DNA from: Leptogorgia sarmentosa
Lineage: Eukaryota
Direction of reading: 5' to 3'
Assembly (NCBI GenBank): GCA_964658305.1
Contig: OZ210885.1
Coordinates: 25,606,001-25,670,000 of the forward strand
Length of the DNA stretch: 64,000 nt
The position numbers and the translations under genes were made by a program. The notes under the pieces are model-generated. The model searched no databases, was not told the origin of the DNA, and saw only the letters and a program-made list of their open reading frames with translations. Each line of letters starts with the position of its first letter. Within the stretch, counting starts at the first letter, position 1. Shown in pieces: positions 42,701 through 61,400 of this stretch.

Positions 42701-43374
42701 AAATTTCAGAATGATCAGCCAATTAAAACAGATCTATCACACACTGAAATGACAAAGCATTGCATCTAGTGAATCAATGCTATTTAAATTATGACACTAC
42801 CTGGCCACAGCAACACTCTCCATATCTTGATCTCCAGAAAAGGGGTCTTCCCCTCTAGATTCTGTGCTCTGTTCTGTTCCAGTGTTATGATTATAAACCT
42901 AAAATTCAAATACCATGTATCATTTCTTTCATCATAATTAATACAAATGAATAAAAGTGGTGGTATAAGTGGAAGCAGATGCTAGTATCTTGAAGGCAAG
43001 GGTAATGGTGTTCCCATAACAGTCTGTCTCTGTGGTCTCACATTAATAGCTTGTGTAAAATATATGAATGAAGACGTAAATGTCAGCTAAACATGTTGTC
43101 CAGGCCTGCAGAGTGTGTGTAGGGGAGGGGGTTAAGTAAAAAATGCAAAGTCAATGACCGAAAAATGCTAAAAATGTTCCTTATGTCAATAAAAAAACGT
43201 TTAGAATAATTAAAAATGGGGGTCACCATACTTTCTCACAACAACATTCAACATCCATAAACGTTGCTTTGTAATTGCACACTCCTTGTACATTGAAAGA
43301 ATGGAAACCTTTGTAACAATAGTAATCTTGTGGTTTATCTGGTGGAAAACTTATTGGTATGTGTGTACCATCTA

Positions 43375-44182
43375 CAGGGTGTCTCAAAAAAAACGCAATC
43401 CTACGTTCAAATGCAATTTTCATAACGAAAAGAAATAGAAAATAGGCTATATTTACCACCGTTAGAAAGCTCTATCATTCCGCTTTCTTAAGACTGCTTG
43501 TTTGTTAAATTTGAGTTGGAAATGAGCGAGTAATGTTATTTTTAGTATGTGTGATTGGACAATTTAAAATTTGAGATAGCTTGAATTTTATTAAAAATTT
43601 AACTTAGTTGGTTACAATCATTCGACGTGGCCGGCATTTCTCAGCACACACAAATCACTTCGACGTTGCATTTCCCGTGCAACTCTTCTTATTAGTTCAT
43701 GATTTCCATGTAAAGCATCTGCTTCAAGCTGTATCTGCCGGTATTTACGTACGTTACGCCAAACGGTCGTCGAATTTGGGACTTGTTGATCCGGGAAAGC
43801 TATTCGAAAAAATCTTAAAACTTCCTGAATACTTTTTGTTACCAAGTAACCTTCAACAATAAAGTTCTTTCTGCTGTAGTGAGCTGTAGCATGATGCCTA
43901 AGACTTTAAAATTATTTCGCGAAAATATTTCAAACAAAATATTCGCATGTAACGATAACGTCCCCTTCGGAATTAAGAACGTCGAATTTGAAGCATCTAA
44001 AAATGACTGCTTGCAGTAAATCACTTATTTTGAAGTCCTAAATGGCCTAAAAAGTCACTTATTGAGTAGAAAATCGACCACTTATTGAGTAGAAAAACGA
44101 TGGGGCTAAAACATGAACTAAAAGTTAAGACATGGAAATATAAAGCCTTAAACTTGGATTGCGCTTTTTTTGATACACCCTG
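43375..44182 (-). mobile_element. Internally deleted Tc1/mariner element
   Basis: TIR CAGGGTGT(C/A)TCAAAAAAA, TA TSD; N-terminal HTH (FRIAFPDQQVPNSTTVWRNVRKYR) joined to the C-terminus (RRSDLCVLRNAGHVE). Confidence 0.85.
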
Positions 44183-44602
44183 TATACACCCAAAGGCCTG
44201 ATGCATTCCGAATTTTGATTCAAACTCTGCTACATTCTTTCTCATCTCATTTTCATCTTTTGGCCGATGTATGTATGTAGGACCTAATAGTTTTACAATG
44301 GATGTACACGTGTCTGTTATTATATTAGAGGCAGTGTTTATCGCAATACCAAAAGCATTAGCCGTCATACCCAACGAACCTGTATCTTTTAGGAAGTATA
44401 ACGTGACTGCCAATTTCTTTTCAATGCTCACAACTCGACTGTTAGGGCTATTCGGATTCGGGACAAGTAAAGGACGTAACTTTTCGACTATCTCTAGGAA
44501 CAGCCTCGTACCCAGGCGCTTATTTTTGTTGGCGCGCTAAGCGCGCAAGGGTGCATGGGGAGGTCGGGAGGAATTAAGCGCCTGGCAGAAAATGCAAACA
44601 AG

Positions 44603-47195
44603 ATGGCGGACGACTGTTCAATATTCATAAATGCAAATGATGAAATCGGTGAATTAACGAGTAATGAAAAGAGACCGATCCACGAAGCTGTGTATTTGGG
44701 GAAGATATTATGCCCAGACGATGACTGTGTTGCGAAGCGTCTATTTTTTCTTGAAAACGGCATAGGCCATCATTTTAGAGTGATTCATAAACGAGAATTT
44801 TCTGATCGAGAGAGAAACCAATCCATCAGCATATGTAAGAAATTGCACGTTGAAGAAACTACGAATTGCTTGGAAGAGATATTTGAATTCAGAAGAAAAT
44901 CGGTATGTACAAACTATTTGATAAACTGTATTTAAGATATGACACTTATTGCATGACTAGCTAGCTTTTAGTTTTACCATCCAACACAACAGTTACATTC
45001 CACACCAAAATTATTATTATACGAATTCCTAAATAAAAATATATTATTTCTTATCTTTGAATTGAAGGAACAACGCTACCAAGATGTTGTTGTAACCTCT
45101 TGTGGTCGTAGTATCACCTGTGTTGTTGAGGATGAACGTGAAGCTGTTCAGTTAATGTGCCTCCTATTACATTATGGAAGAGAGCTTAATCCCTATAGTA
45201 AAGGAAACAAACCTTGCGATGTGGAAGCTGTGTGTGGTTCGTCCGTGGCAAAATTTCATTGCTGGTTCCAAAATAAGCCAGATGGTCATGGTGTGTATTT
45301 TGAAACAGAGTGTTTCTTTGTTAAAAAGGTGAGGCTAATGTAATATATACTTTATAAAGGGAGTTCACCACCTCGTGGTTTGTTTAGTTGTTATGCTTTT
45401 ATCAGTTTATGTTCATCAATTTCTAAAGAAATGGTAATGATTTGAAGTTGGTATAGCAGGACCAAATTGTCGATCTGGCTTCGTAATTTACCATCCTATA
45501 TTACCAACACAAACATGGTATAATTTTTGTAAGGATCACCGATTACATGTGACACCAGAAGGTCCTGTGACAGTCTCGAACCAACCTTTTCAAGAGAACC
45601 CACTCCTGCCACCTACTGAAGATGATATATTCCTGTCCATACTTAGAAATGTTTTCCAGCATGAGAACTTCCAAGGCATACAACGGGATGTGATAGAACA
45701 CATGTCCAATAATAATGATATGTTAACTGTCATTCCTACTGGAGGAGGAAAATCTCTTTGTTATTGGGTTCCTGGCCTGTCAGCTGTTGGAATCACCGTT
45801 GTTATTACACCATTAGTGGCACTATTAAATGATCAAGTGTCAAAGCTCAGAAGCTATGGCATTAATGTTGCTAGTGTCAATTCAAGCATGACACCAGAGG
45901 ACAGGGCAGCAGTATTCCATGAACTAACAAATAAGGAAACACATTACAAGTTTTTTTATTTGACTCCAGAATTTGCATTGTCCCCACCAGCTGCAGCATG
46001 TTTTGAAGCAATGAGAGAAAATGGCACTCTGTTACGGATTGTGATAGATGAGGCACATTGTGTTGATACTTGGGGCCAAAGCTTCAGACCATCATATGGT
46101 CAACTTCATAAACTGAAACAACACAACACGCCAATTGCAGCTTTCACTGGTACTGCAACAAATGAAACAAGGAAGAGAATCGTGGTTGGGTTGGGTCTGG
46201 TTGAACCAGTAATACTCCATTCATCTTGTAATAGGAGCAATCTGTTTTTCCAAGTTATCCCAAAAAGTGGAGCACATTTTAAGGAAGACGCAGTGCAGTT
46301 TATTGCTGATAAGTTTGCTGGCTCTTGTGGTATTGTTTACTGCTTCAGCACAAGAGATACCATTGAGTTGGCTTACATATTTAAATCCAAGCACATGACA
46401 GCTGTCTACTACCATGGTCAGCTTGATTATTTTGAAAAAAATGAAAATGCTAGAGCATGGCTTTCTGGAAAAGCATTGATCATGTGTGCCACCAGTGCAT
46501 TTGGCATGGGAATTGACAAACCTGATGTGAGATTTGTGCTACACCTGAGCATACCAGAATCTCTTGAAGACTATTATCAAGGAGCAGGAAGGGCTGGTCG
46601 CGATGGGAGAAACGCTCATTGTGTCCTAATGTACAGATTTGAGGACAGAAACAGATTAATGCAGTTAATCACAAAATCATCAACTGCTGAACTCAGAGAG
46701 CATCAAACACATTCACTGAATGAGGTTGTTTCATACTGCATGTCCTCAACATGTCGTCGAAAACTTATCCTAGAGTACTTTGATGATGAAACAGAAGTCA
46801 ACTGTGGTGGAGGCTGTGATAATTGCCTAACAACCCCTACATCACCCAGAGAATTTACAACAGAAGCCATTAATGCATGTCTTTGTTTGGAGAAAATGAT
46901 GACAATTACTCCAAAGATAAATGTCAAACAGCTTGCATTGACTTTCAAAGGCTCAAAATCTAAGCGTGACGTGGAAAGCAAAGGATTCCACATGATTCCT
47001 CATTATAGTATTGGGCAAAATGTATTTAAAAATGATTCAGATGCCATAAAGTTTGTACAACATCTAATTATTAATGAGGTTCTGACAGAGAATCTCCGTG
47101 CTGTAGATGACAAATTTATAACACCATTTATTACTCTTGGTAAGAAATCACATTTATTAAGAAATAGAGAAATTAAACTGTTTCTAAGATTGTAA
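44603..47195 (+). CDS. RecQ-family SF2 helicase with N-terminal extension; predicted exons 44603-44902, 45068-45328, 45534-47195 (about 740 aa)
   Basis: PTGGGKS, IDEAHC, WGQSFRPSY, GMGIDKPDVR, QGAGRAGRDG, RQC zinc site CRR...CGGGCDNC; phase-0 GT-AG introns keep the frame open. Confidence 0.92.
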
Positions 47196-48140
47196 AATAA
47201 AATTTGTACAGTAGTCAATGTATTGTAAACTATTTTCAAAGGTTGACACAAAACAATATATACATCATTGTAATTGTATACAATTGAACTGTTGGGAGCA
47301 ATTATTTTATCATAAACAATCTTCAAATATGTATATATGAATGTGCCTAATTCATACATAACAGGGAGATTCAGATTTCAATAACAATTTGAGCAGTTTC
47401 TCCATTTTCATTTTTGTATATTTCAGTCTATTTACTTCAATTGCCAGTTTTATCTCTTGCCCATTACATCCTCAAATAAGTAATTTTGAGACAATATAAA
47501 AGCAATGGACAAAAGGGATAATAGTTACAGTTATAGTTTTTGAAATCTGAATCACCTTGATAATTTTTACCAAAGTTGATTACATTATAATAGTAGAGTA
47601 ATTTAAACTTTTATATACATATTCACTTCAGTCTACATGCCTACTGAACTGTTGACATTGACAATACTATGAAGTAGATAAGGTTCTTAAAAACATGTAC
47701 ATAGTTGTTCCAATTTTTGTAAAACTAATGTTCATTTTTAAATACAATTATACAAGTACTTTTTATAACAATGTCATTTGCAGTTTGCATGAGGCCAAAT
47801 AAAAAAATGTGAGTTTCCTATTTCCCCAAGATACAAAAATAGGTAAGGTGGGTCAGTATTCCTTTTTTTATAGAATATCGTTTTTCCAGAGATGCTACAT
47901 AATATGACAATCAACAAACTGTTGCTCAAAGCATAGCAGGGATGCAAAACATCTTAATTTTGTACATCTTTTTGATAAAATCAAAAGCTTATTGGCCTAG
48001 CAATTTGATTTAATAAAAAAAGTTTAGTGTTGGGAAATTGGAAAGACATATCCTTTTGTTTGACCTGATGTATATGTACAGTACATTGTACTACATACAG
48101 TTCAATATTACCATTTATGTTGGTGTTAGTGTTTAAAATA

Positions 48141-51100
48141 TTAATTTTGTTCATCGCTGGATGATGTGCATAAACTATCCAGAGATGTTTGTCTAAATGA
48201 TGGAAAGCTCTCATGAAGTTTAGACTTAAACTGGTCTTTAACCTTTTTTTCACCTTTCCTGATCACTTCCATACAAAACTTTGAGACAGGTTTTCTGGCA
48301 CCAGTAGGATGTTTAATGGGGAACTCAAGAGGCACTCCTCCAACAGACATTTGGAAGAATCTGTTTGCAAGGCAAAACCACATACCTTTAAGCACATCTG
48401 GTAATGAGCTTTGCTCTTTGTGCTTTGTTGTTTGGTGGTAGTTGAATGCCTTTGGACCAGAGTAAGCACCACGTACAGACCCAAGCATGTCAAGGTTAGC
48501 CATCAGCCTCTGACACATTTGAACTGATGTATGACCTACATGAAATAAAGCATTACATAGTTTTGGCCGCTTAGGGGTTGGTTAATGGAAGTTATTTTTA
48601 CTTAAGGGGACCTGACTTGACCTTTAGAATAGTCAATTAATTGTGATTATATTCTAGCTGAATCAATTTCTTAGACGTACTGTACCATGGGATTCATCCA
48701 TCTTTTATATGACTTTGATTGTACTGTACCTGTTGCATAGGTCTTCAGTGGTCTTACAATATATGTCTCAACATACTCATCCAGGTCCAGATTGTGACCA
48801 GATTTTCCACTCAGGTTGACTGACATGTTTTTCCGAACCATGCTTCTAAAAGCCAGTGGCCACAAGGAAGTAAAGTTGACAACATGGACAAATGCTTCAG
48901 TCCAGTAATTCCTAAAATCCAATTGTGCAAATATTGGCAACATCAAGACCCAAACAGTCTCCCGCATGATTCCATCTCCTTGTTTACAAGCAAATATAAA
49001 CATCTCGAGCAATGGACCAAATAATGAGAACAGCTGTTGGTGGTATTGGTGATTACCATCACATTTAGCACAATTTTCTAACCAGCTCTTGAATTTTTCC
49101 AGTAGAAGCGAATTGTGATTTCCAAATCTCCGTAGAGCCGCAGTCAACTGTTCATCTGATGGGAACTCCTTTGACATTTTGAATTCTTGTACTGCTGCAA
49201 AGCCATATGCACAGCTGGCATCTCTAACACCTTCTTGTATATGGTTGAGGTTCTGTTCTTGGAACTTCCTCTTCTTGAATGCCTCTTCTGTCAGTTTTGG
49301 CCTCTTCATGACATCATGGACCACTTTCTGAAAGCCACCTTGACCATGTGCTTTGAATGCAGCCTCACATAGGTGTCCCTTAGCATGCATGTCCCCTGGA
49401 ATTTCCGTGGACCAACCATATGCTGTTTGGTTCCTATGCCTTACACCGCGGTTGATCTTGCAAGTACCAACATCTCCAACAATTGCAGTTGGAAAACCTT
49501 CAAAGTTGGATCTCTTATATTTGTACGGTTTTGGAGTGTCTTCATCATCCATATCTTGATTAAGCTCATTTCCTGGCCTTCTGCTATCATCTGGTGTACT
49601 GCTATCAATATTTTGAACCATGTCCAATATAACTGTTTGATCTGCTCGCACTTGGGATAATGAGTCAAATACTTCAACAATTTCTGTCAGTTCCATTGCA
49701 AGGGCCATTTCCAGTGGAGTTGGTAACGGATTGAAGAGTGGACCTTTGTACTCAGCAAAATGGTCCAACAACAGTCTTACCATATCAATATCACCATTGA
49801 TCACAGCCACTGTCATTGGTGTAGCTCCGCATCCTTCTTGGGAATTTGGATTTACACCTATTGTTAGTAAAATCTTCACTAACACATAGTTTTTCATTTC
49901 CACAGCACAATGAAAAATACTTCTTTCATAGCAATCTCTCGTACCATTCATTATTTTCATGTCGGTGCCCAGCTGCTCTATCAAAGTATTTAGAGCACCA
50001 TCTTCATTGGAATAAACTGCTTGTTGAACTTTGGTACTGATTTTGTTGTACAGTTCCTTAAATGCATCATCTTGTTTCTGTTGTGCAGTCTTTCCCACAG
50101 CAGATTCTGGGTGTTGTCTTTCACCTTCGTCATTGTCGTCAGAGTCAGATAAAACATCTTCTGGTGATCTATCCATGTGTTTTTCAACAGATCTCATTTC
50201 CTTCTCCAATTCTAACATTTCGATCTGATGTGCATTAACCGACTTCATGAAGTCAAACTGATTCCGAGCAGACATGAGATCAAATTTCTTCTCTGATCTA
50301 TCAAATGGGATTGCACTGGCATGTAGACAAGGAATCGAAAATTCTCTCCCAAATTCCTCAAAAATAGCTGCAGTACCAGTAAGTGTGGAATTGTTCTCAA
50401 GTGATAATGGAAGGTTAACAATTTTGCTTTTGGTAGTTTGGCTGCTCACAGAGCGTTCTTGCATTGAAGGTGGTTTTACCTTGAACTTCTTTTCACTTTC
50501 AACACCTTTTGATAAATTAGCTTTGGAAAGCCATGTATTAAACTCTTTTTCATCCATTTCTTTAAAATGCTTGAGAGGTGTAGGAATGTCATTCAGACAT
50601 TTGTCTAGTATATCTAAATAATACGCATCACGCCAGTTGTCCCACATTTTTTTATGCTCTGGCATCGAACCTTGAAAAATAAAAAAATAAAGTAAATGGT
50701 ACTTTCTTGGTGTACATTTACAAATACATTAGTATTAATTAACCCATTGCCACATTGTGTCAATTATGTCAAAAGGCACAGTATGTAGTTTGTAAAGCCT
50801 CATCACAGGTTAAGTTTGTATTTCAAATTATATCTTAGGTTCAGTAGGTTCTATGAAGCAATAACTTTTTCTTACCCAGAAGTATACTTTCAACATTTAT
50901 AGCCGAGATATCTGCTTGTGGTAATGTGGCAGTTTCTTGACATAACAATAAATCTTGAATATCCTGGGTATCAGGGATTATTGCTGCACGACCTGTGAAA
51001 TTCCACATCTTTGGCCCCATTGATTTGAGCAGTCTGAGGTGTCTTCTCCTACCACGATAGAGGTTTATGTTGTCCATTAACAGTATAACAGGGATGTCAT

Positions 51101-53661
51101 CAGGACACTTTTCTGATATTGTTGCTTGAATTTTCTTTTGCCGTTGTTCAAGGAAATTATTTCTATTAAAAATATTTAAAACACAGTTAACATGGTAAAA
51201 ATAAAATTATAAAGTCAAAGCACAGTAAACACAGTAAACATACTGAAGTAATTATGACAGTCATGTGAAGGATTTTTCCCCTGAAGTGACAGATGGTTTG
51301 GTATTAGAAAGGAAATGTTTCCCATTAAACAAAGTTACAGTGGTCCATCACAATCGTTGGAAACCACAATTGCATGCTTTAGTGCATCTACACAAAAAAG
51401 CACCTGGGTAGCTCACAGTTCACTATAAGCATTCTTTACTCAGTGACAAAATGCTTTGATGTGCACATACAGTATAATAATAACTATAGTTACTGTAATA
51501 GTAGTATACATACAATGTATCCCAATGTGGTGTCAATCCCATGGCATTGAGAAGGTTGATAAACTGTTTCCCAGCTCCATATGTAATGGACACCAAACCA
51601 AGGAGTAAACGAACATCATTCTTGCATTTCTGATTTCTTACACTCAGTAGGAGGGCCAATGCATTCACACCACATGTAAGTTTATACTCTGGCGTCTTGT
51701 GTACTCTTTGTCGACTATCTGTTACCAGAAGTGTTTGCAAAACACTGTTTAACAGTGGACATTTCTCTTCAAAATTGTTCAACAAATTCCAGAACACATC
51801 TGACTTCAGAACATCCACATCACCACCCTCTGTTACACCAAAATTACATATTTGTTCCATCTCCTTCATTTCTATGGTAATTTGTTCTTTTTGTGTCTTT
51901 GTCATTGTACTCTCTCTTTCTTCATGGTCTTCTAGCTTTTTAAGTTTGCTTTCATATAATATAACTAGGGCAGAGTTCAGTTTAAAACTATGTTGCAGGT
52001 TTAATAGATATTTCCTTGCAAGAGGTTTAGCTGCTTCCTCATTGTTGTCCTCTAATGCTTTAATGACAGCTTCTGCATCTTCCACAAGGCTGTTTTCTGC
52101 TGCATGGATATGGTTTTGCAGCTCTTGAATTTCTTTGTTTTCCTCAGAAAACAGCTCCTTGCAGGCAATGGACCTTCTTCCAATATTTTTTAAAGAAAGA
52201 TTTGTATAGACAACCCTGGATTTAACGTTAAGAATAATAGCATCCAGTAATGGTAGTTGTTTTAATTTGGAGTTAGTCAGTGGTCTAAAGCCCCAGTCGA
52301 ACCATAATGAAAGTCAAGAACAGTTTGACCACTCATCAACTCTCTTTCACTCAGTTTTTATCAACTTTGAATAGCTTCACATTTTAGTGATAGTTAGTGA
52401 GAATTGTTATCAACTGTCATTCTTGTTTGACTGGACATAGAAAAGTAACAATTTACAAATACATGAATTTTGAAAAGGATACATCGATTCATGGTCAATC
52501 ATTTTTCTTTTCTTAGATGAACCAGGAAATAAGGCTGTAATTGTTCGTGTGAGAACATTTTTTTCCTCAGCGACCAAATCTAATAAATCCATTAGCACTG
52601 ATTGCCTAACATACACATCTGAGTCCTCATCATACACCAACACACTTTCCAAGTCAACTGACAGATTCTGTCTTCTTTCCTTACACTGGAAGCTGGACAA
52701 GTTGTATGCTATCAAACAATACAATTTAAAAAGCCTGTTTAAAATTATCCCTGACATACACATAGTATTACATATAACTATGTCATCTACAAAAAACTAA
52801 AACAACAGTATGTATTGTATACCTTGCTTATAGTTATATTTCATAACTCTACTATGAATAACAATACAGTATATTTTAGATATACCAACCTGAGGCTGCA
52901 AATCTTTTGGGTTTAGATTCAGCAGCAGCTTTTGATTCTGGCGTCAAATGGTGTTTTCCTGGCCTTTCCTTTACAGGAGTGCTCGCAGTTACAGGCTCTA
53001 CAAAATGCAAATTGGCTAATTTGAATTCCTAGTATTGATATTGGGTTACTGTATAGGTGGGTTTCACAAGGCTACACTTCAGTGCACATGGTGGTCAAAT
53101 ATACAAAATAATATTATTATAATCTTATTTGAATCTCATTATTTGACCACCATCTGCCTTTGTCTCAACTCCTCACGTGACCTAATGAAACCCAGCTATT
53201 TATTACAAATTCTTAGTATAAATATCAAAGCCCAGCAAAAAGCTTTTAAAAGAGCCATATATATAAAGAGCCTATATATATTTGTATAACTATATGGCTC
53301 TTTTAAAAGCTTTTTACTGGGCTTTGATTAATTTATACTAAGAATTCGTTTCCCACCTGGTATCTCTCTGGTTACTATTTATTACAACTACAAGGCAGAC
53401 TATTACAAGGCAGTATTTTCTTTACCATTAATACCCAGTTGTTCGAAGGATACATTCAGTTCTTCGTCACCAGAACTTGAAGATGCTATTATTAGATAAA
53501 AGTAAGAACTCAGATATGTAATAAACAGAACGAGTTGCGTGAAGCAAAATCAAAAATAATATGATCATGATGGCGCGTGTATTACACGCTGAAAAAATCT
53601 AAATTAAGGAAATATTACCTTCAGGTGGTTGTTCTTGCAGCGATTCCTCAAGATTATCCAT
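48141..53661 (-). CDS. Multi-exon Academ-type DDE transposase with embedded ankyrin repeats
   Basis: Candidate catalytic motifs LMDNIN, IVGDVGT, PGDMH, NLDLDEYVE. About 8 exons; boundaries of the small 5' exons are approximate. Confidence 0.78.
49668..49935 (-). other. Ankyrin-repeat segment (2-3 repeats) within the transposase
   Basis: RSIFHCAVEMKNYVLVKILLTIGVNPN / GATPMTVAVINGDIDMVRLLLDH / PTPLEMALAMELTEIVEVF. Confidence 0.85.
53208..53346. repeat. ~140-bp AT-rich imperfect hairpin (MITE-like) in an Academ intron
   Basis: AATTCTTAGTATAAAT...AAAGCCCAG...GAGCCATATA mirrored by TATATGGCTC...CTGGGCTTTG...ATTTATACTAAGAATT. Confidence 0.75.
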
Positions 53662-54246
53662 TGCTTTAGTAACCAGAAGCGATAACTACCTCAAAACTAC
53701 CCCATTATTTAGTAAAAAGCGATTTGTCAGATATCGGTTAAGATTTGCCAGATATCGGTCATTTTCTGCCAGGCGTCTCATTCTCTTGTTGAGCCCTCCC
53801 CACAATCCCTTGCGAAATTACGCGCTAGACGCCTGGGTACGAGGCTGCTCTAGGAAGGTTTCTTTTGGCATTCTAAATTTTTTTCCCATTCTTCCTGTGG
53901 CGCTACACCATTCAACATATTCTGCCACCATTGATCCGTTCGACCGGGTTTAAACCAACAACTACGTTTCGCTTTTCTTAATCGTCGTTGTTTGATTTTC
54001 TTTAATCTCTTCAGAAAATAGTTACGCTTTCTTAGATTTGCCTGGCATAGAGCTTGCTGTAAGCACTGTCCGTTTAATTGGTGAATCAAAATCAAGCCAT
54101 GTAATTGAAGAAGGATACATAAAAGACTCACTAATTGTAAACAAATAAGCGGAAATATCATGTTTTGTTTCGCCATTTTGAATACATTTAAATTTTCCCG
54201 CAGTTTTGCGGACTCGTTCCAGTCTCTCAAAGAGAACTTGTGAAGA

Positions 54247-54326
54247 AAGGTGGGATAATGGGTGGGATATTGGGTGGGATATTGGGTGGGATATAAAGTG
54301 GGATATAAAGTGGGATATAAAGTGGG
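54247..54326. repeat. 12-bp tandem array (GTGGGATA core) in the Harbinger subterminal region
   Basis: About 6.5 units of GGGTGGGATATT / AAGTGGGATATA. Confidence 0.85.
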
Positions 54327-55002
54327 CTGAAATTCCATATGAAATCGATTTGAATTTTATCCTGGCTAGCCGAACTGGCCCAGTTAACTGGGCCAGCTCA
54401 CCTCATATGAACAGGGCCTTAAACTCAAGCATTTTTTCTGAAATTTTGAACGGAAATACAAAACCAGACAAAGTTTCCGTCCATCAACTAAAAATTGCTT
54501 TTGAGCCTTTAAATTTCGTGCACAAGACGTTTTCTATTTGTTGGAAAAAACACTGCCCCCGGGTTTTTGAAAATTCAAATTACAAATATTTTTTGTTTAT
54601 TCTACATTATAAGTACTCAACCAATCCACATAAACCGAAAACTTTGTACCCCGAGCCCCTTTGCGATTTAAAATCTGTTCACTTTTTTTTTATACACCGT
54701 GTATATTCAAAAAACTTACATCATCATGGCCCTTTGTTCACTTGATGGGTATAAAAGATGTGCTATGCATCAACCATATTAACATGAAGAGGAAAATTAC
54801 AGTTCATTTACTAGTTTCATTATACACAAAAACTCTAACACTCTAAACCAGGAACAATTGTTTTTGACTGGAAATAAGAACCAGTTAAGAACCACTTCAG
54901 CCTGATTTCTTTCTAAGTACCGTTATATAAGCACCACTTCAGCCTGAAGTCAAAATTCACTGGTTCTTTTATGCTGGGTTTTACTGTATTGCTAATTCAC
55001 TA

Positions 55003-56067
55003 TTGAATTTCATACTACCAAAAACGGACAATGGGAACAAGTATCTATTAATGTGCATGGATTATGTTACAAAATGGCCAGAGGTATATCCGATTGCGAA
55101 CCAAGAAGCAGAAACAATTGTGAAGGTGTTGGTTGAACAGTTCGTGTGTAGATTTGGTGTTCCTTTGCAAATCCACTCTGATCAGGGACGAAACTTTTGT
55201 TCAAACGTATTTAACGAAATGTGCACTTTACTGGGAGTGAAGAAAACTCAAACGACACCCTATCACCCACAGTCGGATGGAATGGTTGAACGCTATAACC
55301 GTACCCTTGAAGCACAACTTTCCATGTTTGTCGATACGCATCAGAAAGATTGGGATCAATATATTCCGTATTTACTAATGGCATACCGGACCGCAGTGCA
55401 CGAGTCGACGAAGTGCACACCGGCAAAACTGATGATGGGACATGAGATACGAGTACCAATTGATCTGGTATTCGGAAAACCGGAACCAGAATGTTATAAC
55501 GAGGGAATTACAAAATATGGAACAAAGTTAGCCGAGAATATTGAACAAGCTCATGAATTTGGAAGAGAAGTACTTAAGACATCTAGTATGCGAATGAAAA
55601 GGCAGTATGATGTAGATGCAAAGATAAGGAGGTTTAAAGTTGGAGAATCAGTGTGGTTATATTCGGTCGTGTGTAAGAAAGGACTGTCGCCCAAGCTGAC
55701 AAGACCTTGGACTGGGCCGTACGTTATAATTAAGTCAATAAATGACTTAGTTTATAAGATCCGGTTAACAGCGAAGGCGAAGCCAAAGATTGTGCATAGA
55801 AATAGGCTATGGAAATATAATGGACGATTAGAGCGAACTGGAAACACTGCGCTAAGACATGGTGAACGAGTAAGAAGAGAACCTGAACGATATACACCTT
55901 AAATCTTCGGGACGAAGATTAATTGACAGGGGGGTATTGTAGCATAATTGGGTTCGGACATGCATCATGTACTTTATAATTTATGTAAATAGGTTTTTGG
56001 GTGTATTCTGTGTGATATGTATTAACAAGAGATAGATAGACGTGCTAATAAAACGGCCACCGCTACA
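55003..56067 (+). mobile_element. 3' fragment of a Gypsy: integrase ORF (55003-55902), PPT and 3' LTR (55938-56067)
   Basis: HSDQGRNF, YHPQSDGMVER, WTGPY; PPT GACAGGGGGG; LTR TGTAGC...GCTACA. Confidence 0.88.
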
Positions 56068-58043: not shown

Positions 58044-58453
58044 AACTTATGGTAAATCTGTTTTCGCAAAATGCTGTACCACTGTCTGATTTGCATTTTT
58101 TTTACTTGCTCTGATCAGGGCTTTTACTCTGTCTATCACAAAATTTCTAAACCTTCCAACCAAGGGGTGGTTCCAGGAATTCTACAACAAGGGGGTGAAG
58201 TTCCCTGACAGGGGGTTTAGCCTCCTACCTCCTGGTACCATGCCTTGAAACAGGCATGGTACCAGGAGGTAGGAGGCTAAACCCCCTGTCAGGGAACTTC
58301 ACCCCCTTGTTGTAGAATTCCTGGAACCACCCCTTGGTTGGAAGGTTTAGAAATTTTGTGATAGACAGAGTAAAAGCCCTGATCAGAGCAAGTAAAAAAA
58401 ATGCAAATCAGACAGTGGTACAGCATTTTGCGAAAACAGATTTACCATAAGTT
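58044..58453. repeat. Perfect palindrome: 202-bp arms, 6-nt spacer TGAAAC
   Basis: 58044-58245 is the reverse complement of 58252-58453 on inspection. Confidence 0.95.
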
Positions 58454-61400
58454 GGAGGTACTGGCACTTCTCTCACAACTTCATCACCCAACTTGTGCTT
58501 TGGGTAAGTTACCTTCAGATATTTTTTGCCATCCTTTCTTGTCATTGTGCTCCTTTTCACGTTTTCGTTAAAGTGGAGGCATGCTAGAATATGTCTAAAA
58601 TGCACACAAATGACAATATTGAAGAGTATAAAGAATAAGTTACCTTGTTTTGTGTATCTCATGTTTACAACTACCTGCAATATGAGCCCATCCATGAAAA
58701 GCACAACATTTTTGGGTGCCATTGGTTAAGTGTTGCATGGAATCCTTCTAAAGCACTAGTTTGCTCCATTGGGGACAGCCTTTGGATATCTTTCATCAAT
58801 GATTTCTTAGACAACACTTGCTTAATCTTGTCATAACTTTTTGTTCCTAAAATTCCAAAATTAAAGTTCTCAGATGCATAATTTTGTGCAAATTGCAATT
58901 GTGAGGTCTTGTACAGTAAAACCCATTCATATATGTTTTCTTCCAAATTGTAGAAGGGAGAAAACATGCTATTAAAAACTTACAATGTACATCAGTCATG
59001 ATGCAAAAAAAATCCATAGGTATTGTAAATACAAATACAACTTCTACAGTATGCCTTGAGTTCATACTATAATTAGGTGTTGGAAAATTTGGGTCATCAC
59101 TAGCAACAGGAAGCAAAATTATGCATATCAAAGTAAACCTTGCCAATAGCCAATTGAAAAAGCTTTTTGTCATTTTTATTTAAATTATCATCCAATCAAA
59201 ATTATGAGAAGGCCAATTATGAATTTGCTAGGCATTTTCGTGTTTGGCACATGTATTCAAAAACAAATAGATAAATAATATACAGTATAGATTATTATTA
59301 TCCATATACATTTGATCCCTAAAATGTATTTTTGCATACCCACTTTAATCCACTTTCTTTTGTCAATTTCACCATGCACACAGCTTTTGAACAGGTCATC
59401 TTCATGATCTGTATGCTTGTTTGCAATGTGCCGGAGAAGTGATTTTGCTGGAGATTAGCAAAGAATAAAGTAAAATATAAATTTGGCTGATTATTGGGTT
59501 TTGAGCAGAATTTTATTACGAAGGGCCACATATAGGTGAAACTATTAACTAATCAATTACCTATGGATTTTATGTTCTTGTGACAAAAGCAATATCTATC
59601 TCATAATTTCCCTGCGGTCACTCGTATTGCTTTGTCACTTGAACATAAAATCTACATCTTCTTGCAACCATGTAATATACCATGTATTACAAGATACTTA
59701 CTTGCAACAATTCAAAGTGACCAATCTTCATTTCTGTGCAATTCATAAGTGTATATGCACAATATTTGGCACTGTGCCCCATTGAATCGAAGCGGCCATC
59801 GCCACTCCAGGTGTTGTCAGTCTTCCTCCAGCTGTCCAACAGTCGCTTCTGGTATGTCTTCCAATAACTGATGATGCTAGGGAATAGTAGACTTGATTGA
59901 TGTCTGAAGTATGTCCTGATGCTGTACATAGACAAGCCCATGTGCCTAAACACCAACAGGATTTTGCTTATCGATGCACCAGATACAAGTATGGCATAGC
60001 TAAGTAAAATATTTCCAGCTGGGTATTTGCCTAAAATAAGTGGTTGGGAATCCCATTGGAAAGAGTTCCTGCAATGCAAGCACTCTTGCTCAATTGAAAC
60101 TGCTGTCCCATTCTTTTTTATTTGGATTTTTGGGTCACCTGCTTTGCATTTAAAGCAGAACATTGAGAACAAAGCCATAAGGTTCGTGTAAAACACAATA
60201 AATTTTGGTTCAACACATGAAGTTGAACCAGGATCCCATCTACAGTAAATAAAAAAATGTTATTAGTAAATGCATGACTGATAATATGCATGGAACATGG
60301 CCCCTACATCTAAACATTTTGGTTCATTGTCCAAAATTGAAAATTAAATATGGCAAGCCTTTTGAGTGCTTTCCTTCCTTCATGTAACATGTTTGTCATA
60401 ATTTCTGATACGTACAGTATGTATGACCCAGCAACAATTTGTTTACATACACACTAGGCACTGTGAAACATAAAGCCAAAAGAAGAATGGTGTCAAAATA
60501 TTGCAGTCATTTTAAAAATAAAAACTTCACTTCTTAATTCCATGTTTATTGAATAGAAAACCCAGTTTGTTTATTGAAAACTAAATTAAGTATTCAGTAC
60601 ATACAGTACCTGAACCTGATTGTATTGCTAGTAGTACCATCATCTTCGACACTTTCCCCAGAACTGGATGACTCAGTTTCACATTCTTGCACTTGTTCTT
60701 GAGGGTCATGTTGGGATGATGGTTGGGATGATGTTTCATTTGTGTCACTGCTCATATCTTCTGATTCTGGTCCATTATCACTTTCCATCTCAACTTCAGT
60801 AACATCTGGCCCTTCCTCAGGCATTTTCTTTGGCATGGGTAATTTTTGGCGAAGGAACCAGCACTTCTTTTGCAAGGCAAGAACCTTGGCTTTGAATATT
60901 ATGCACTTGCCACATTCAACAGTCTGTGGTTGCACTGGTTGGTCTCCTGGCTGGTGTCCTGCTACCTGTTGTTGGTCTCCTGCTACATGTAGGTCCTGTG
61001 CTGCCCGGGGTTGGTCTTCTGCTGCCTGGGGATGGTCTCCAGCTGCCTGGGGATGGTCTCCAGCTGCCTGGGGATGGTCTCCTGCCGTCTGTGGCTTATC
61101 CTCTTGGCAAATGTCCATATCCTGAACTTGCAGTGACACTCTGGCATCCAGTGGTATTTCACCAATGCTGGCAATAACCATCTCTTCCTCTGCGCCTTCC
61201 ATCCCTTCTGAGGCAGACGTTGTCCCAAATGTCTCAGCAGCCTCTTGATGTATTTTACGCAACATCTATCATACAGTCAAAGAAGAAGCAAAATAAATAC
61301 ACTTTTGTAATAAATAGTCCGGTGATTGGGACTGTGTTTATTAAATGGCCACAGGCAGTGTCTGAGATACTGATTTCAATTCTGTGGTTTGATATACTGT

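Follow-up and report, generated by a model that had tools for sequence, protein, structure and literature searches.

The 64,000-nucleotide stretch of Leptogorgia sarmentosa DNA analyzed here (contig OZ210885.1, forward-strand positions 25,606,001 to 25,670,000; hereafter the window, whose numbering is used throughout) contains a complete DNA transposon of 9,347 bp with terminal inverted repeats (TIRs). The element spans 44501-53847 and holds two open genes that face each other, one encoding a RecQ-type helicase and the other a transposase of the DDE (Asp-Asp-Glu) kind (Table 1). A preliminary description of this locus had proposed an Academ-type transposase with ankyrin repeats inside its catalytic core. 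The reading that we consider probable, short of certainty, is that the element is a complete TIR transposon, likely of the AcademH type, with a conserved ankyrin module in the predicted RNase H core of its transposase, and that this module likely serves as a fixed dock for the element's own proteins. As a mobile element it is ordinary; as a protein, its transposase is unusual.

Table 1. Features of the element and of its insertion site (window coordinates)
Feature	Position	Strand	Details
Left target-site duplication	44492-44500	.	CTCTAGGAA, 9 bp, identical to 53848-53856
Left TIR	44501-44600	+	Begins CAG; 18 bp perfect, looser similarity to ~100 bp
RecQ-type helicase gene	44603-47195	+	Predicted exons 44603-44902, 44972-45328, 45534-47195; 772 aa
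Transposase gene	48141-53661	-	8 exons, 1253 aa, internal stops absent
Transposase exons 1-4	53661-53619, 53485-53426, 52997-52890, 52708-52483	-	
Transposase exons 5-8	52215-51514, 51162-50876, 50670-48730, 48535-48141	-	
Predicted first catalytic Asp, D410 (LMDNIN)	51072-51074	-	Codon at 51074; strand β1 (strand 25-33 in the L011 model)
Insert of ~270 aa	49511-50317	-	Between helix α1 and strand β4 of the RNase H fold
Ankyrin repeats	49652-49936	-	Two clear and a degenerate third; Pfam and fold match
Predicted second catalytic Asp, D875 (VGDVGT)	49472-49474	-	Codon at 49474; end of strand β4
PGDMH motif	49385-49399	-	Codon at 49399; after strand β5, where the helical insertion domain starts
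D-x-x-x-E (DLDEYVE; D1106, E1110)	48767-48781	-	Codons at 48781 (D) and 48769 (E); last catalytic helix (helix 705-720 in the L011 model)
Right TIR	53748-53847	-	Terminates CTG; contigs of other samples exit the window exactly at 53847
Right target-site duplication	53848-53856	.	CTCTAGGAA
Interrupted target gene, 3' part	44024-44491	-	Frame reads through the junction; 5' part at ~53857-54160

The first finding of this study is that the ankyrin repeats are genuine and lie within the predicted fold of the catalytic domain. Pfam recognizes both Ank_2 (E-value 8.9e-20) and DUF6589 (E 1.1e-15) in the transposase, and the ankyrin match covers the interval, 49668-49935, in which the repeats had first been noticed. 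The long minus-strand frame that carries them, also reported beforehand, is open over 685 codons (48671-50728), the coding exon itself being shorter (48730-50670, 1941 nt). An AlphaFold model of this exon (predicted local distance difference test, pLDDT, 86.7) folds as ankyrin over residues 195-343, which match RFXANK (3v30; Z 13.7, root-mean-square deviation, rmsd, 3.2, 131 aligned), and the model also matches the ankyrin structure 1n0q (Z 12.6, rmsd 1.8), so that profile and repeat fold both identify an ankyrin repeat domain. The predicted placement inside the core stands, and the extent of the inserted segment has to be widened: the repeats are part of a larger insert, which opens with a long helix and a disordered acidic linker, continues with capping helices and the ankyrin stack, and closes with a second disordered acidic linker.

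The four motifs singled out in the preliminary description—LMDNIN on the previous exon, VGDVGT, PGDMH and DLDEYVE—are all where it had put them, and their key residues are highly conserved among homologues. The predicted first catalytic Asp is D in 15 of the 16 sequences covering the position and the second in 104/108, the G-D-x-H motif retains G in 109/110, D in 108/110 and H in 106/109, and in D-x-x-x-E, the E of which is the predicted third catalytic residue, D and E are each found in 94/96. First Asp and last Glu are 700 residues apart in the window protein. The model of the whole core, made for the intron-free relative L011 (pLDDT 89.4; predicted template modeling score, pTM, 0.87), displays the topology β1(D)-β2-β3-α1-insert-β4(D)-α2-β5(GDxH)-large helical domain-last helix (D-x-x-x-E). 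It matches the P-element transposase (6p5a; Z 10.7, rmsd 4.6, 290 aligned, residues 2-743, 9% identity), which is the sole transposase among 50 fold-match rows, the remaining rows being ankyrins. The D, D and E residues, the topology and the P-element match together identify the protein as a DDE enzyme of RNase H-like fold, which is a trait of AcademH elements and had been expected of the regions flanking the repeats. Foldseek lists from other runs held ankyrins throughout and no transposases, and the core profile gave no sequence match in the PDB. The DUF6589 profile is interrupted at the insert, its positions 100-380 matching after it and positions 58-104 weakly before it in the two loci tried, L010 and L011 (E 0.013-0.032). 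The insert is predicted by the model to loop out between α1 and β4 and to leave the active site intact, which could still form because of this arrangement. When a eukaryotic DDE transposase has a large insert, its usual site is between the second Asp and the Glu. In this lineage, an entire repeat-protein module separates the first Asp from the second, and it has persisted while the cores diverged to 30-40% identity.

The second finding is that the module is a trait of a lineage and not of a single copy. A precomputed ankyrin family is present in 77 of the first 80 homologues, the other three being one fragment and two chimeras with reverse transcriptase. Further homologues were sought with the part after the insert alone, and with a profile of such post-insert parts; among the 229 proteins examined, 133 were left out because they were too short or did not cover the site, and ankyrin is present in 95 of the 96 that reach far enough upstream. 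An independent Pfam check found ankyrin in nine of ten chosen proteins, most of them distant. Named members come from Paramuricea and from Branchiostoma (lancelet), together with a fragment of the core from Actinostola; Atlas clusters, which are labeled DUF6589 or unnamed only and have a recognition value under the reliable range, add a few records from Cnidaria and Mollusca. Over 52 sequences, mean identity is 47% in the ankyrin module, 51% in the core and 16-17% in the linkers. Pairwise identities in ankyrin and core go together (Mantel rho 0.80, a value reached by 0 of 999 permutations), and the ankyrin tree has 17 supported splits, not one of which contradicts a supported split of the core tree. 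The ratio of nonsynonymous to synonymous substitution rates (dN/dS) is 0.15 for ankyrin, 0.11 for the core and 0.51 for the linkers in the single divergent pair that is unsaturated in all regions, most of the 55 pairs being saturated and three near-identical; for ankyrin it is 0.15-0.29 in three pairs. The test of selection on the insert that had been suggested for this locus therefore comes out as purifying, and our data show that across a deep lineage the ankyrin module is retained and is under purifying selection. Because retention, conservation, low dN/dS and the congruent descent of ankyrin and core all point the same way, we infer that the module was acquired once, long ago, and has been kept by selection since.

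The boundaries of the element bear directly on whether its ankyrin-bearing gene belongs to the host. The target-site duplication (TSD), CTCTAGGAA, is a perfect 9 bp on both sides, and a 10-bp duplication does not fit in this one insertion; the window has two occurrences of the terminal pattern, where chance would give 0.02. Removal of the element together with one TSD copy leaves a flanking reading frame that is continuous through the junction. The gene thus interrupted, which we take from its motifs to be a Harbinger-like transposase, has zero Pfam matches. It is scarcely credible that the ankyrin-bearing gene is one of the host's own ankyrin genes or that it arose as a chance fusion in a single copy. 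Such an origin is suggested by database names, since the coral proteins P0032, P0070 and P0390 bear host names (e.g., ANKRD12 or GA-binding subunit beta); these proteins are nevertheless this element's transposase, and the TIRs, the TSD, the precise insertion into another frame, the DDE fold, the derivatives present in other samples and an identical layout in more than 90 homologues all speak against a host gene, which for the window copy is refuted by the ends and the homologues. Likewise, the coral proteins P0088, P0107 and P0117, named RecQ4B-like or SGS1-like, are this element's helicase. AcademH elements are often annotated as host genes (PMC6416283). As some coral "ankyrin repeat proteins" in public databases are transposases, host ankyrin gene counts can be inflated. 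No matching termini were found among 32 homologous loci. At L010, a candidate left end starting CAGCCC lies at ~1087, upstream of an intron-poor relative, the opposite end falling outside the contig.

The helicase gene lies inside the TIRs, and its product has DEAD (DEAH), Helicase_C, RecQ Zn-binding (RecQ_Zn_bind) and RQC domains by Pfam. Its residues 24-772 are 57% identical to the annotated protein P0088 of the soft coral Dendronephthya; its introns are GT-AG and their splicing is predicted. The ~220 extra N-terminal residues (44603-45328) are Cys/His-rich and 34% conserved in the soft-coral protein, and they match no Pfam family. A helicase gene faces the transposase in seven of the 11 loci with more than 1.2 kb downstream, three of these seven being one family. 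In a tree of 106 sequences, from which short ones were excluded, the helicases of the element type group in a single clade (support 1.0), separate from cellular RecQs.

How the module might act can be proposed as follows. The element would transpose by cut and paste with a 9-bp stagger, as family knowledge suggests, and the helicase would unwind or remodel DNA intermediates during the reaction. The ankyrin face may then bind either the C-terminal region of the transposase itself or a partner subunit within the transpososome, a step that we put forward as a serious if tentative possibility. Four ankyrin residues are near-invariant (R at 49924, E at 49900, E at 49837 and C at 49831; 93-97% conserved), and they sit, judging by the design of artificial ankyrin repeat proteins (DARPins), where ordinary ankyrins vary freely and have their binding face. 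Because these residues are near-invariant across distant hosts, a partner that is equally constant would most simply be encoded by the element, which, judging from the sequences, fits better than a host factor. Weak hints of self-binding are the high whole-chain pTM and the extension of 10 of 50 ankyrin alignments into L011 residues 835-842.

A narrower version of this proposal, in which the module is a specific dock for the element's RecQ helicase and couples unwinding to the transposase, strikes us as somewhat unlikely. It would accord with the near-invariant face, with the two genes traveling together in 7/11 loci, with five match pairs that share their longest-contig size, with the element-specific clades formed by transposase and helicase alike, and with the retention by the helicase of RQC, a domain that in RecQ proteins binds DNA and proteins. 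However, helicase identity among homologues is 31-75%, which is more variable than the near-invariant ankyrin positions, and AcademH elements carry helicases generally, ankyrin going unmentioned in the relevant portions of PMC10799480 and PMC10045372, so that the helicase would not seem to need an ankyrin dock. The fullest form of the idea, an undescribed ancient animal Academ lineage whose core ankyrin module physically couples a DDE transposase to its own RecQ helicase, we regard as improbable. If true, the ankyrin coupler would provide a first way into the question of what the helicase is for in these elements.

Two further explanations place the cause of conservation elsewhere. The module might bind a conserved host protein or a chromatin mark and thereby steer or license insertion, which is doubtful in our view. 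Ankyrins are general protein-binding modules, the chromatin-related MPP8, EHMT1 and RFXANK are among the fold matches, acidic linkers flank the module, and the single target observed is another transposon. Yet dozens of unrelated ankyrins score level with those fold matches, which are functionally uninformative, the fast change expected of a host-conflict surface is not seen in the three pairs for which ankyrin dN/dS is given above, and the same residues are kept across the whole alignment, with named members from corals to lancelet. Alternatively, the module could be purely structural or a tolerated passenger, captured once and kept solely because the enzyme can fold only if the module does. 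Folding alone would also give purifying selection, and many conserved positions are those of an ordinary ankyrin core, but the disordered linkers on both sides would allow clean deletion and 95/96 proteins still retain the module, whose non-consensus residues are near-invariant; we consider this explanation very unlikely. A dock for the element's own proteins is the reading that we retain. A few conserved residues and a module that can be taken out, in an intact element, make the role of the Academ helicase directly testable, and likewise the way in which a so far unstudied transpososome assembles.

Several points weigh against this reading. The ankyrin profile behind the count of 95/96 was derived from the first hits themselves, and the one exception, P0291, lacks most of the ankyrin module and bears other deletions too. 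All searches were seeded from the ankyrin lineage, and a lack of the module in other Academ lineages is not demonstrable thereby: when ankyrin-free relatives were sought, the best 150 of 296 representatives all belonged to the ankyrin lineage or were fragments, and longer proteins, sought with a profile, yielded four matches, each of them bearing ankyrin. Because the searches contain no ankyrin-free Academ protein, the status of the segment as an insert rests on the weak first-half DUF6589 match (E 0.013-0.032) and on fold topology, and the whole-core model is that of L011, 41% identical, and not of the window's spliced protein. No helicase was seen in four of the 11 long loci. The hint of self-packing is weakened by a pLDDT below 50 at L011 residues 836-842. 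Finally, the large exon has lost 1 bp at 49529 in sample X1, and the near-identical P0001 is frameshifted close to its end, so copies are not all intact.

As regards age, two studies supplied four DNA-like runs in which 27-30 of 30 bins are covered, with long interior pieces mostly at least 99% identical, and internally deleted derivatives occur in the same runs. The family is young and has mobilized derivatives, as follows from near-identical copies in other samples, the intact TSD and the open frames; the recency that the preliminary description put forward for the insertion is supported at the level of the family. A ~130-bp miniature inverted-repeat transposable element made of ends only (44501-44565 joined to 53797-53847) reaches high depth in several runs. 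In three runs, transposase exon 3 (GT at 52889) is joined by splicing to position 46112, an AG acceptor that lies inside the helicase gene in antisense orientation, and two DNA-like runs have a deletion of 46239-52819. This suggests that a transcribed deletion derivative yields antisense-helicase RNA and a 79-aa peptide, and such a derivative possibly acts as a repressor. In X1 and X7, a contig joins 44500 to 53898; it may represent an empty allele or stem from a further copy of the target repeat, and was not used for dating the insertion.

The gene model of the transposase draws on homology and on spliced contigs. Residues 27-1237 are 39.7% identical to the annotated 1264-aa Paramuricea protein P0390, and residues 224-1239 are 36% identical to a 1243-aa Branchiostoma protein. 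In spliced contigs from four runs, whose kind is unrecorded, intron 1 is skipped exactly and intron 2 is skipped with its donor fixed at 53426; the exon-3 donor is used in three of the four, all observed junctions are GT-AG, and the other introns are predicted. These four small-share runs are without cover over the ankyrin exon, which has no bearing on expression. Intron number varies widely among families (L008-L011, P0054-P0069), the core being intron-free in several and the window copy having seven introns. A 38-bp hairpin-type inverted repeat lies at 53224-53328, within transposase intron 2.

Other features surround the element. The nested target (43373-44186 and 53857-54330) consists of a Harbinger-like remnant beside a small inverted-repeat element with TACAGGGTGT… arms, and a 12-bp tandem array occupies 54237-54332 in the same region. 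Further downstream are a Gypsy-type integrase fragment (54931-55902; rve, E 5e-14) and a perfect 202-bp palindrome with a 6-bp loop (58044-58453). The palindrome adjoins a gene at ~58400-60260, which has zero Pfam matches and which we take to be Kolobok-like from its GDGRFDS motif.

The placement of the element among known systems is the last point. From DUF6589, which we take to be a mark of the Academ superfamily, together with the TSD length and the helicase, it is likely of the AcademH type, a lineage reportedly described by Kojima in 2020 (Mob DNA 11:15); of the Academ features named beforehand, the helicase, the 9-bp TSD and the TIRs stood, and DUF6589 suggests that the transposase sequence is Academ, a grouping in a tree of reference Academ sequences being outside the basis of the assignment. 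Typical AcademH elements have YAG…CTR ends and facing genes. They carry helicases (PMC10799480, PMC10045372) and have a TSD of 9 or 10 bp (PMC10045372). The window element resembles them in its DDE transposase, RecQ/DEAD-type helicase, facing genes, 9-bp TSD and TIRs (CAG…CTG, 18 bp perfect). It differs from them in that ~270 additional residues, ankyrin repeats included, separate its first catalytic Asp from its second, its span of 700 aa from first D to last E comparing with a 465-position Academ RNase H profile, the limits of which are unverified (PMC5751038 supplement). The complete tail of its helicase, with RecQ Zn and RQC domains, may be a further difference. AcademHP, an animal AcademH sublineage marked by a PHD finger in the transposase, is similar in being an AcademH-type branch with an extra interaction domain, PHD there and ankyrin here; Pfam scans of the window frames and the chosen homologues revealed no PHD finger. 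Our literature search found no report of an ankyrin-bearing Academ transposase, although an earlier description is possible and Repbase may hold such families.

More distant systems share single traits with the element. The nuclease partner of AcademX is XPG. AcademX, with a 3-4-bp TSD and a nuclease partner (PMC10045372), was rejected, since the TSD here is 9 bp and the reading frames scanned contain zero nuclease families. KolobokH, for which PMC9587614 gives a 4-bp TTAA TSD and RR…YY termini as for Kolobok, was likewise rejected on the 9-bp TSD and the CA…TG termini. Kolobok is nonetheless alike in having a RecQ helicase partner and a lineage-specific zinc finger of the CCHC type that was acquired beyond the first catalytic D, on its downstream side (same source), and unlike in that this insert is a small zinc finger and not a repeat-protein module. 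Membership in the hAT/P/MuDR/Kolobok/Dada group is contradicted by the G-D-x-H motif, which is not C/DxxH, despite the P-transposase-like fold. The Drosophila P-element transposase (6p5a) shares the RNase H core and a large helical insertion ahead of the last catalytic helix, and is not known to have an ankyrin insert or a helicase partner; its signature is C/DxxH (PMC9587614), in contrast to DxH here. Lastly, the Burro giant long terminal repeat retrotransposons (PMC6431247) are also eukaryotic mobile elements encoding ankyrin repeats; there, the ankyrins are accessory to a retrotransposon polyprotein, whereas in the element described here they lie within the predicted catalytic fold of a DDE transposase.

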